DNA from: Candidatus Omnitrophota bacterium
Lineage (GTDB): Bacteria > Omnitrophota > Gorgyraeia > Duberdicusellales > 4484-171
Length of the DNA stretch: 64,000 bases
NCBI GenBank assembly: GCA_021735655.1
Contig: JAIPGM010000007.1
Span: 6,125 to 70,124 of the forward strand
Direction of reading: 5' to 3'
Below are positions 15,582 through 57,638 of this stretch, piece after piece. A model generated the notes under the pieces. It was given only the letters and a program-made list of their open reading frames with translations, was not told the DNA's origin and did no database searches. A program made the position numbers and the translations under genes. Position 1 is the first letter of the stretch, and each line of letters opens with the position of its first letter.

Positions 15582-16157
15582 TTAATTCTTATTTTGCTTA
15601 AGTAAATAATCAAACTCTACATTAAGTTGGGCTCCCGGTTTCTTATCCTGTAGAGTCGTATCACGATAAGTAAAAGGAATAATATCTAAAGTAAAATACT
15701 TTGGGTAGATCTTCTTTACAGTTAAAGAAATTCCCTCAACAGCAATAGAGCCATTTTCTAAAACTTTTGACTTAAACCGGGATGGCAAATCTATCTCTAC
15801 CTGCCAATAATCACCTTTTTTAATTATTCGTCTTAATTTTAGTTCGGTGTCGACATGACCTAAAACAAAATGACCACCAAGTTTGTCTCCGGCTTTTAAT
15901 GCTGGCTCCAAATTAACTAGATCACCTACTTTGAGACGCTTAAGATTAGTATTAGCCAAGGTTGAGGCAACAGCCTCAAAAAAAAGATCATTCTTAGATT
16001 TCTTAGTCAAAGTAAGACAAACTCCGTTAATTGCCATACTGTCAGAAACCTCAGCTTCCGAGGCTAATTTTTTTGAACTAACCGCAATTACACTTAGCGA
16101 ACTCTTTTTGCTAAATGCAGTAACCTTAACAACTTCTTTTATTATTCCAGTAAACAT
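15582..16157 (-). CDS. ribE: riboflavin synthase alpha subunit
   Basis: N-terminal MFTGII motif and lumazine-binding repeats, 191 aa. Confidence 0.9.
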   Translation of the reverse strand: MFTGIIKEVVKVTAFSKKSSLSVIAVSSKKLASEAEVSDSMAINGVCLTLTKKSKNDLFFEAVASTLANTNLKRLKVGDLVNLEPALKAGDKLGGHFVLGHVDTELKLRRIIKKGDYWQVEIDLPSRFKSKVLENGSIAVEGISLTVKKIYPKYFTLDIIPFTYRDTTLQDKKPGAQLNVEFDYLLKQNKN

Positions 16158-16302: not shown

Positions 16303-16336
16303 AAAAAAATAACCCCGCGCCTATTGAAGCGCGGGG
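16303..16336 (-). terminator. rho-independent terminator (8-bp GC stem CCCCGCGC/GCGCGGGG, 8-nt loop, then TTATTTTTTT on the minus strand)
   Basis: Perfect GC-rich inverted repeat at 16313-16320/16329-16336 followed on the minus strand by a U-run, 68 nt downstream of the small Lys-rich ORF stop. Confidence 0.65.
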
Positions 16337-16403
16337 TCGAAATTTCATCGATGTTTTTATTCGTAAGAAGTTAAACAAAGGTTCTATTACCTTCGTCTAT
16401 CAC

Positions 16404-16475
16404 TTATTTCTTTTTTTTCTTTGCTGCTTTTTTCTTTGCAGGTTTTTTCTTCTTTGCTGCTTTCTTCTTTGCCAT
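16404..16475 (-). CDS. 23-aa lysine-rich peptide MAKKKAAKKKKPAKKKAAKKKKK (histone-H1-tail-like basic peptide; function unknown)
   Basis: ATG at 16473-16475 is preceded at optimal spacing by a strong SD AGGGGGGTG and an upstream TTGACA-17-TAAATT promoter, and is followed by an intrinsic terminator. Below the ORF-track size cutoff. Confidence 0.45.
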   Translation of the reverse strand: MAKKKAAKKKKPAKKKAAKKKKK

Positions 16476-16531
16476 GAAAATCACCCCCCTTTTTTATTCT
16501 CAACACTTTGTTAAGAAATACCTTATAATTC

Positions 16532-16560
16532 AATTTAACAAACTTATCACTCAATGTCAA
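16532..16560 (-). promoter_or_regulatory. sigma70-like promoter (TTGACA, 17 nt, TAAATT) for the Lys-rich peptide gene
   Basis: Minus-strand TTGACA (plus 16555-16560) and TAAATT (plus 16532-16537) with a 17-nt spacer, about 55 nt upstream of the ATG. Confidence 0.45.
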
Positions 16561-16676
16561 CACATTTTCGTGTTTTTTTTGATTTTTTAATGCGACTTAA
16601 ATTTTTTGAAATTGCTATTCCGAAAAATTATTAGTTGAATTATTTTTCAAAGTCATTAAAAATGACTAAAAAAATA

Positions 16677-17066
16677 TTAGTGGGGTTTTTTAGGCTGGGC
16701 TTTTATCTTTCGAGGAATTTTAACGGTAACTTTTTTTGCTTTATCCCATAACCGTTCAAGATTGTAATATTCTCTAGCTTCATCGGTAAATATATGCAAG
16801 ATGATATCGAAAAAATCAACCAAAACCCAATACGATGACTCATTAGCTTCAGAATGCTGAGCTCTCATATCACCTTCTTTGCAACTCCTGATAGTTTCTT
16901 CATGTATTGCCTTTACTTGCCGGGTTGAATCTCCGGAACAGATAATAAAATAATCACAAAGACCGCTAAAATTGTGCACATCTAGAATAACTATATCTTT
17001 AGCCTTTTTTTCACTAATAATTTCAACGATTCTAGCAAGCTTTTCTTTAATTTTTAAAGTAGTCAT
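16677..17066 (-). CDS. rsfS: ribosomal silencing factor RsfS (Iojap)
   Basis: 129 aa with Iojap family motifs. Confidence 0.9.
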   Translation of the reverse strand: MTTLKIKEKLARIVEIISEKKAKDIVILDVHNFSGLCDYFIICSGDSTRQVKAIHEETIRSCKEGDMRAQHSEANESSYWVLVDFFDIILHIFTDEAREYYNLERLWDKAKKVTVKIPRKIKAQPKKPH

Positions 17067-57030: not shown

Positions 57031-57165
57031 TTAAAGATTCCAACTTCCTTTTTCTTTAGTCGTCATCGTCTTATTACAACATTTTATCTTTTTGGTTGAT
57101 TTTTTACCCTTGCCACAAATAACACAAAGGTAAGCTTTTTTTTTATTAGTCTTTCTTTTCGCCAT
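57031..57165 (-). CDS. 44-aa Cys-rich basic protein MAKRKTNKKKAYLCVICGKGKKSTKKIKCCNKTMTTKEKGSWNL (putative small Zn-binding protein)
   Basis: ATG overlaps the upstream gene stop (TAATG), with an AGGAGA SD 5 nt upstream; C-x2-C-x13-CC motif. Below the ORF-track size cutoff. Confidence 0.5.
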   Translation of the reverse strand: MAKRKTNKKKAYLCVICGKGKKSTKKIKCCNKTMTTKEKGSWNL

Positions 57166-57638
57166 TATTTTCTCCTATTCAATAATCTAATTTTCGTCTG
57201 TAATGTCCCCATCGGACAAACCGCACACCAAGTGCGAGCCTGAAAAGGAATCCCGATGAAAATTGCAATCAAGGTAGTTACTAGGCACATTCTTACAAAA
57301 ACAAAACCTAGCGAATAAACATTTCTCTCGACCACAAAAAGTTGACTAGCAAAAAAAATCATAAAGATCGCAAATACCCCCCAACGAAACTTCTGGCTAG
57401 CAAAAATTCTTGGAAGCTGAGCTTTACGACTAACTCTGCTTAAAGCCAAATCCAAAAATGCTCCCCGCGGGCAAAGATGTGAGCACCAAAACCTCCCCTT
57501 AAAATAGGATAAACTTAAAAGAAAAATCATCATCAATAACACCAAGTAGCCTAAAAGAGGAAAAAATAACCCACCGACGATGATTAAAGGTAAAAACCAA
57601 ACCATTATCAACTGACTAAGTTTTACTTTTTTTCCCAA
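57165..57638 (-). CDS. membrane protein with two Cys clusters (4Fe-4S-binding, NapH/MauN-like fragment)
   Basis: CSHLCPRG and CAVCPMG motifs flanking TM helices. Confidence 0.55.
   Translation of the reverse strand: MGKKVKLSQLIMVWFLPLIIVGGLFFPLLGYLVLLMMIFLLSLSYFKGRFWCSHLCPRGAFLDLALSRVSRKAQLPRIFASQKFRWGVFAIFMIFFASQLFVVERNVYSLGFVFVRMCLVTTLIAIFIGIPFQARTWCAVCPMGTLQTKIRLLNRRK

Follow-up and report, generated by a model that had tools for sequence, protein, structure and literature searches.

A window of 64,000 nt from a Candidatus Omnitrophota contig (the whole stretch of DNA analysed here) carries, between rsfS and ribE, a mini-gene whose 23-codon open reading frame (ORF) specifies the Lys/Ala peptide MAKKKAAKKKKPAKKKAAKKKKK. 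By comparative criteria this mini-gene is real, with its reading frame conserved and its amino acids under selection, and genome comparisons place it in a widespread unannotated class found across many bacterial phyla as well as DPANN-type archaea. The reading that we favour with moderate confidence, built on the sequence and on analogy with known systems, is that of an autonomous monocistronic unit whose product would be a diffusible, nucleic-acid-binding polycation with DNA as its likeliest target. That the peptide is translated in vivo, is abundant, loses its Met and binds this target is inferred. An initial annotation had proposed a self-contained unit for a free-standing Lys/Ala peptide; our analysis supports that proposal and widens it to a multi-phylum class. 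The other loci compared are denoted by L-numbers.

Layout and expression signals of the mini-gene

The mini-gene occupies the minus strand, and its parts are listed below in 5' to 3' order along it.

16561-16589, minus: A-tract AAAAAATCAAAAAAAACACGAAAATGTG, UP-element-like, directly 5' of the −35 box, read from the sequence
16532-16560, minus: sigma-70-type promoter, with −35 TTGACA (16560-16555), a 17-nt spacer and an extended −10 TGTTAAATT (16540-16532)
16497-16517, minus: stem-loop UUCUUAAC-loop-GUUGAGAA of the 5' untranslated region (5'UTR), from the minimum free energy fold, between the predicted transcription start and the Shine-Dalgarno sequence
16481-16489, minus: near-consensus Shine-Dalgarno (SD) sequence GGGGGGTGA, 5 nt before the ATG
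16404-16475, minus: coding sequence of 72 bases, 23 codons plus TAA (ATG 16475-16473, TAA 16406-16404), product as given above
16375-16396, minus: small 3'UTR hairpin with the core AAGGU/ACCUU, inside a conserved 65-nt 3'UTR
16303-16338, minus: intrinsic terminator GACCCCGCGC-TTCAATAG-GCGCGGGGTT followed by ATTTTTTT, with 12 pairs, 8 of them G-C

The TTGACA-17-TAAATT promoter, the SD, the 23-codon ORF and the GC-rich terminator named in the initial annotation are all present. The −35 box is perfect, the −10 hexamer TAAATT lies at 16537-16532, and the spacer ends in TGT; the promoter thus agrees with the consensus at 10 of 12 positions and has a TG extension besides. Among the promoter-like sites of the whole window, it scores highest by an ad hoc measure. 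The 2-kb region contains 10 promoter-like sites where 5.8 ± 2.3 are expected and two terminator-like sites where 1.3 ± 1.1 are expected, neither number being significant alone. The terminator stem (16338-16311) encloses a 4-nt loop, begins 65 nt past the stop codon and has a T-run after it. The A-tract may act as an UP element and the 5'UTR hairpin may have an mRNA-stabilising or regulatory role; together with the consensus −35, the extended −10 and the strong SD, these signals predict high output.

The peptide consists of 15 Lys (not 17, as had been counted initially), 6 Ala, 1 Pro and 1 Met, with the motif AAKK twice and PAKK once. It measures about 2.6 kDa, bears a net charge of about +15 and is devoid of any hydrophobic segment. 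Since Ala in position 2 leads one to expect removal of the initiator Met, the mature product probably has 22 residues and about 2.5 kDa. No second Lys-rich small ORF exists in the 64-kb window; this, the near absence of such ORFs from related loci other than as tandem copies, and the conservation in relatives put the mini-ORF far outside what chance would produce.

Two other ways of reading the region were considered and rejected. Because an in-frame GTG at 16484 falls inside the SD and loses the frame in the related locus L005, we take the ATG as the start codon. An overlapping ORF in the +1 frame (58 amino acids (aa) in the window) has neither an SD nor a conserved start, and in L006 it meets a stop before the Lys region; the Lys frame is therefore the conserved one. 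Public annotations of L002-L004 and L143 never call the SD-ATG mini-ORF, and in two lineages they use a wrong frame or start. A 36-aa ORF of the +1 frame (KEKSSKEKK...) is called from a TTG in L002 (4310-4420), L003 (4525-4635) and L004 (1773-1883), and the call in L143 (4225-4377) is a 50-aa ORF stretched upstream, again from a TTG.

Conservation among syntenic relatives

To compare the locus with its relatives, we retrieved the latter via RsfS homologues alone, without using the peptide. The RsfS of the window is 100% identical to that of a Candidatus Omnitrophica metagenome-assembled genome (MAG). All four relatives with 56-71% RsfS identity have the same gene order and keep a Lys/Ala ORF between rsfS and ribE. 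Their peptides are MAKKKAAKKKPAKKKAAKKKKK (L006), MAKKKKKAAKKKKAAKKKKK (L002-L004), MAKKKPVKKAAKKKVAKKKVAKKKKK (L005) and MAVKKKKAAKKKTTKKKAAKKKKK (L007). The ORFs differ in length, always in frame, and retain the ATG and the stop. The SD of the relatives is of the GGAGG type, GGGAGGTGA or AGGAGGTGA, at the same position. Frame-breaking indels, which the initial annotation had named as grounds for abandoning the gene, were thus not found; only in-frame indels occur, with SD, ATG and stop conserved.

In DNA alignments, TTGACA, TTTGnTAAATT, the SD, ATGGCA, the end of the ORF and the CCCCGCGC/GCGCGGGG terminator stem are invariant, and these conserved blocks are embedded in intergenic DNA that is otherwise not alignable. 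The A-tracts upstream of the −35 box are kept in at least 12 Omnitrophota-type loci. An RNAalifold consensus of 12 loci returned the 5'UTR hairpin with seven pairs, six of which show compensatory double changes, while the elements ACGAAGG and ACCTT recur in the 3'UTR of most Omnitrophota-type loci.

Conservation of this kind might also be expected of a non-coding A-rich RNA, for instance an (ARN)n sponge for Hfq or another protein, or a small RNA, in which the ORF would be incidental. Runs of AAR triplets are the classical motif for the distal face of Hfq; in Omnitrophota, nucleotide-level conservation extends over the entire transcript, 5'UTR and 3'UTR included, and the mini-gene transcript has a fold z-score of −5.6. 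We regard such an RNA as very improbable. The SD, ATG and stop are kept across phyla, indels are always multiples of three, and the variation is mostly synonymous and follows genome GC. Moreover, 35-45% of the triplets are GCN, ACN, GTN or CCN and break the ARN motif, no Rfam match was obtained, and the element is present in the Candidate Phyla Radiation (CPR) and in DPANN.

A class of mini-genes in many phyla

We scanned one genome per GTDB species with the degenerate pattern ATGGCNNNNAARAARN{18,48}GCNAARAARAARAARAARTRR, which matched at least 120 loci. The pattern dictates an MA-x-KK start and an AKKKKK-stop end; because the search required both, the shared MA...AKKKKK ends of the matches are no evidence of conservation. 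Among the 120 matches listed, 117 are free-standing in-frame ORFs of 17-27 aa, and in nearly all loci listed the upstream frame is closed within 0-45 codons. Adding the window ORF and those of the four syntenic relatives to these 117 gave a family set of 122 non-redundant ORFs. A 5-mer SD lies 4-17 nt upstream of 95 of the 122, compared with 3.2% of 5,905 random ATGs from the same loci; family ORFs lacking it come mostly from Bacteroidota and Saccharibacteria-type CPR. By ad hoc criteria, a hairpin with a T-run follows within 150 nt of the stop in 92 of 125 loci.

According to their labels, the carriers include Acidobacteriaceae (many), Planctomycetota/Phycisphaerae/Pirellulales, Omnitrophota, Verrucomicrobiota, Bdellovibrionota/Oligoflexia, Alpha- and Gammaproteobacteria, Nitrospira, Gemmatimonadales, Eremiobacterota, Dormibacterota, Elusimicrobia, Bacteroidota and several CPR groups, as well as Pace-, Woese-, Aenigm- and Thorarchaeota. 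For L014 (Pacearchaeota) and L015 an archaeal setting was verified, the former having a neighbour with Nre_N and Nre_C domains (E 5e-77) and the latter a Taw1-like neighbour. Besides a GGGGGTG SD, L014 (5320-5345, minus strand) has a TTTAAATA box about 40 nt 5' of the ATG and an oligo-T past the stop, which by their sequence are archaeal-style transcription signals. Locus L101 is labelled 'Methanosarcinales archaeon' and L027, L047 and L079 'Planctomycetia', yet all four show the Omnitrophota-type synteny of M16 peptidase, rsfS, mini-gene and ribE with the same promoter and terminator; these labels are probably binning or classification errors.

Two Bdellovibrionota loci were reached independently of the pattern, via PyrD (53-54% identity). 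Between pyrD and ntrY they encode MATKKKAAKKKVAKKKTAKKKAKK and MATKKKAKKKVAKKKVAKKAKKK, whose C-termini would escape the search pattern. When we sought a cultured Bdellovibrio carrier, no named isolate was found among the top PyrD homologues.

Selection on the amino acids

The middle of the peptides, which the pattern leaves unconstrained, is composed of K 55%, A 27%, T 8%, V 5%, P 3% and R 0.1%, with neither acidic nor aromatic residues. Between the lowest and the highest locus GC (0.27 and 0.73), the AAG fraction climbs from 0.48 to 0.79 and the GC content at the third position of non-Lys codons (GC3) from 0.06 to 0.60, with Spearman correlations against locus GC of 0.69 and 0.75, respectively; throughout, the composition stays K/A/T/V/P. 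In fifteen Acidobacteriaceae species an identical 17-mer, MATKKKATKKAAKKKKK, is encoded by 11 different DNAs. These DNAs vary at 14 sites, every one a third codon position, and identity in the flanks is only about 40%.

In 973,597 nt of related loci, only four other Lys-rich ORFs of 15-30 aa occur, all in tandem beside family members. These second Lys-rich small ORFs lie at 2002-2068 in L019, 1416-1473 in L056, 7110-7182 in L059 and 7396-7471 in L118. The copy in L019, MKGKSMTKKKTSRKKAAKKKK, has its own GGAGG SD and stands ahead of a shared terminator; that in L118 is MACCCKTKKAKKKVTKKVAKKKKK. The tandem ORFs look like local duplications, hence multi-copy loci.

As a negative control, the pattern was applied to 2.9 million viral contigs (IMG/VR). 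It returned 13 matches (L130-L142), all of them C-termini of longer ORFs, without an SD and with repeats such as GGMAKKKKK, MMRGG, MAKKK and AYMYGGMAKKKKK (an example being MAKKKKPMMMAKKKKPMMMAKKKKK). These viral Lys/Met/Gly-rich tails are distinct from the mini-gene family.

The 122 family ORFs end in TAA (77), TAG (44) or TGA (1). The pattern permitted TGA, which is scarce here although many carrier genomes exceed 55% GC, where TGA is usually common. This scarcity may reflect avoidance of a leaky stop after the Lys run, or a preference for release factor 1.

Genomic context and autonomy

The initial annotation had placed the mini-gene between rsfS and ribE, and NCBIfam matches bear out this location:

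16677-17066: rsfS, upstream flank (TIGR00090, E 2e-34)
15582-16157: ribE, co-oriented downstream flank (E 7e-57)

Beyond these flanks lie an M16 peptidase gene and the trp operon upstream, and tRNA-Pro and a ROK kinase gene downstream. Elsewhere the synteny is lineage-specific, and no partner gene is common to all loci:

Omnitrophota type: M16 peptidase, rsfS, mini-gene, ribE
Bdellovibrionota: pyrD convergent with the mini-gene, ntrY divergent
One alphaproteobacterial group: mini-gene downstream of gatB
CPR: mini-gene upstream of secA
Acidobacteriaceae: mini-gene near oxoprolinase, thiolase and CPBP genes

Of 111 loci, 43 have a convergent gene downstream of the mini-gene; of 113, 55 have a divergent gene upstream of it. 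Because its neighbours are so often convergent or divergent, and because it has its own SD and its own terminator, the mini-gene is an autonomous unit.

The same arrangements bear on the idea of a cis-acting leader or attenuator, in which translation of the run of Lys codons would respond to Lys-tRNA or to ribosome speed and thereby govern read-through of the terminator into ribE. As in the trpL and hisL leaders, a short ORF rich in one codon family is followed by an intrinsic terminator, here about 65 nt on and ahead of a co-oriented ribE, a superficially trp- or his-like layout. Unlike those leaders, however, the mini-gene has no conserved downstream operon, and its own peptide sequence is under selection: composition and termini are conserved, beyond mere Lys codon content. 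The neighbours vary by lineage, are functionally unrelated (pyrD, secA, oxoprolinase and others), and none is tied to lysine; ribE is itself unconnected with lysine and has its own TGTGATATAAT box upstream (16203-16193). Nor did the fold predict any antiterminator pairing with the end of the ORF. The convergent arrangements largely refute the leader-peptide reading, and we give it hardly any credence.

The product as a proposed nucleic-acid-binding polycation

Under the favoured reading, the sigma-70 promoter with its upstream A-tracts would drive a transcript of about 230 nt comprising the 5' hairpin, the SD, the 23-codon ORF and the terminator. The product would be an unstructured polycation, its Lys runs parted by one or two small residues, that diffuses and acts in trans through electrostatic, sequence-nonspecific contact with nucleic-acid phosphates. 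Since a +15 polycation is without a hydrophobic core, its function would necessarily be electrostatic. On DNA, it could neutralise charge and compact or bridge the nucleoid in the manner of a stand-alone H1 tail; rRNA would be the alternative target.

DNA appears the likeliest target because the composition matches that of the histone H1 C-terminal domain and of AKKA/PAKKA tails. Such Lys/Ala/Pro repeats are the DNA-binding modules of Hlp/HupB, Ku and HbhA, the repeat-bearing C-terminal domain of HbhA being both necessary and sufficient for DNA binding, and tails of this kind bind DNA independently of sequence, bridge it and compact it (PMC3553676, PMC10665949). The C-terminal domain of histone H1, the mycobacterial proteins Hlp/HupB, Ku and HbhA, and the N-terminus of Deinococcus HU share with the mini-gene peptides a composition of K >> A > T/V/P with almost no Arg, the common motifs AAKK, AKKK and PAKK, and an absence of acidic and aromatic residues. 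Low-complexity DNA-binding tails rich in Lys, Ala and Pro are also found in AlgP and in chlamydial Hc2. The resemblance to H1, Hc and AlgP-type tails noted in the initial annotation thus holds by composition (K 55%, A 27%, R 0.1%), as the Lys/Ala/Pro/Thr content, the AAKK/AKKA/PAKK motifs and the near absence of Arg all indicate. In position the mini-gene departs from this group, since the known tails are appendages of 40-150 residues on folded proteins, whereas here the repeat is the whole 17-27-aa product: the ORF is no terminal extension but free-standing, with its own promoter, SD, ATG and terminator.

Free polycations of about 19-50 aa whose sole known task is to neutralise and condense DNA do exist, namely the adenovirus core peptide mu and protamine-type peptides. 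In contrast to the mini-gene products, these are Arg-rich and viral or eukaryotic, mu arises by proteolysis, and they are not stand-alone prokaryotic genes.

The peptide could instead be a tiny ribosomal or ribosome-associated component, like Thx, bS22/eL41, bL37 or Coxiella CLaSP, that fills a pocket or coats rRNA and neutralises its phosphate. There are precedents for very basic, unannotated ribosomal proteins of 24-33 aa that were found only by cryo-electron microscopy; Borrelia bS22, with 61% K/R, had been missed by mass spectrometry, and CLaSP in Coxiella is a further case. Another unannotated basic mini-protein that has turned up in ribosome structures is bL38 in Borrelia. Like the mini-gene, bS22 (DUF1713/AURKAIP1, equated with eL41 and mS38), Thx, bL37 and CLaSP are encoded by stand-alone mini-genes, span 24-33 aa and are more than 55% basic; these tiny proteins are often unannotated, being below gene-caller limits, and invisible to tryptic mass spectrometry. 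Strong expression signals, a broad distribution, the position beside rsfS in Omnitrophota and the presence of AKKA repeats in the ribosomal protein RplV (PMC10665949) would all suit such a role.

We nevertheless consider a ribosomal role less likely, although it is a serious alternative and the main rival. Profile and PDB searches did not relate the peptide to bS22, to Thx or to any chain in the PDB. The known mini-proteins are Arg-rich, of fixed length and equipped with conserved hydrophobic or aromatic anchors, as illustrated by the 33-aa bS22 with its conserved hydrophobics; the Lys/Ala class, with about 0.1% Arg and no anchors, varies in length and in the spacing of its Lys runs even among close relatives. 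Because of this near-zero Arg, lack of anchors and free variation, fuzzy charge-based binding fits the class better than an rRNA pocket. A translation-related context does not recur except for rsfS in one lineage, and Bacteroidota, which already have bS22 and bL38, carry the mini-gene too.

Export of the peptide as an antimicrobial, cell-penetrating or host- or prey-directed agent was weighed as well. Oligolysines are membrane-active and antimicrobial, and many of the carriers listed belong to predatory or episymbiotic groups (Bdellovibrionota, CPR, DPANN, Omnitrophota); the order of the matches listed is, however, not meaningful and allows no claim of enrichment. The peptides have no signal peptide or leader and are not amphipathic, lacking a hydrophobic face; genes for transport, immunity or maturation do not recur nearby, and free-living Acidobacteriaceae, Nitrospira and Hyphomicrobiales are carriers too. 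External action is therefore improbable.

Several observations weigh against the reading of the product as a nucleoid-binding polycation from a real, conserved gene. In most cases, H1-like and PAKKA tails exceed this length and are attached to a folded domain; on its own, a 17-27-mer might soon be degraded, or its binding might be too transient for it to organise DNA. As AKKA repeats occur in RplV and the gene adjoins rsfS, rRNA is an equally accessible target. Translation is predicted from sequence signals and evolution. All 120 matches listed are MAGs, some of whose labels are clearly wrong (L101), and for peptides of such low complexity homology between lineages is inseparable from convergence. 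Finally, two more distant Omnitrophota relatives with 49-52% RsfS identity, L008 and L009, have no mini-ORF at the syntenic site or within 8 kb, so that the mini-gene may be dispensable or located elsewhere. The rsfS-ribE gap of these two loci (4428-4685 in L008, 4461-4718 in L009) contains instead an 85-aa HypA-like (PF01155) zinc-ribbon gene.

If made at the level that its signals suggest, the peptide would be a major intracellular polycation beside polyamines and Mg2+. That would bear on DNA compaction or ribosome stabilisation in small or slow-growing, mostly uncultured bacteria and in DPANN archaea, and it would add a deeply distributed gene class never called by annotation pipelines. More tentatively still, and at somewhat less than even confidence, we propose that more than 12 phyla in both domains encode a previously unrecognised, highly expressed 'genetic oligolysine', a free polycationic peptide that would generally form part of the nucleoid, as a minimal condenser of the H1 or protamine kind, or else part of the ribosome. 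Three circumstances would explain why it had been overlooked: it is below gene-caller length limits, masked as low complexity in similarity searches and destroyed by trypsin in proteomics. Peptides of 17-27 aa, such as synthetic AKKKAAKKKKPAKKKAAKKKKK, are easy to synthesise and offer a concrete reagent.

Searches against known families and literature

Scans of the peptide against Pfam and NCBIfam gave no match, even at E<=10, and a PDB sequence search (phmmer, E<=10) gave none either, though the PDB holds many bS22 chains; the composition correction of HMMER penalises low-complexity queries of this kind. With Rfam 15 at the gathering score, nothing matched in the mini-gene region, and only two tRNAs matched in the whole window. 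A collection of about 15 billion predicted proteins contained none of the 10 family peptides looked up in it. Full-text searches for peptide strings and for lysine-rich small proteins returned nothing relevant, subscription-only literature being outside their reach, and the GMSC and sORFdb papers make no mention of lysine-rich families. In GMSC, whose ORF predictions reach down to 30 nt, 2,437 multi-phylum small-protein families are described, mostly unannotated; because it covers such short multi-phylum families, the Lys/Ala class may be present there without a name. Provisionally, we regard the class as not previously described.

Membership in specific families was rejected as follows. For bS22/AURKAIP1-COX24 (DUF1713), there is no profile match at E<=10, no PDB match and an Arg content of 0.1%; for Thx (bTHX) and other solved tiny ribosomal peptides, there is no PDB match at E<=10. 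Chlamydial Hc1/Hc2 gave no Pfam match, and the peptide has only 23 aa as compared with the long Hc2-type repeat protein. A type I toxin, which is a hydrophobic, membrane-inserting peptide paired with an overlapping antisense RNA, would not fit a peptide lacking a hydrophobic segment, and the opposite-strand promoter-like site is directed away from the ORF.

Other features of the window

The opposite-strand site just mentioned, TCAACA-18-TATAAT (10/12) at 16500-16529 on the plus strand, lies within the 5'UTR of the mini-gene and points toward rsfS. It is the only opposite-strand promoter-like site there and probably represents a chance match in AT-rich DNA.

A kinship had initially been suggested with the 44-aa protein encoded at 57031-57165 (minus strand), which begins MAKRKTNKKKAYLCVICGKGKKSTKKIKCCNKTM. 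This suggestion did not stand, as the protein, MAKRKTNKKKAYLCVICGKGKKSTKKIKCCNKTMTTKEKGSWNL, is Cys-rich, with CxxC and CC motifs, and thus a small protein of a different kind. Its sequence suggests a small, basic protein resembling a zinc ribbon, with no relation to the Lys/Ala class; the stop of its ORF and the start region of the gene at 57165-57638 overlap.

Across the window (1-64000), every one of the 55 ORFs of at least 150 aa lies on the minus strand, with a GC skew between −0.13 and −0.30 throughout. This extreme co-orientation of genes and uniformly negative skew are consistent with a single replichore arm.

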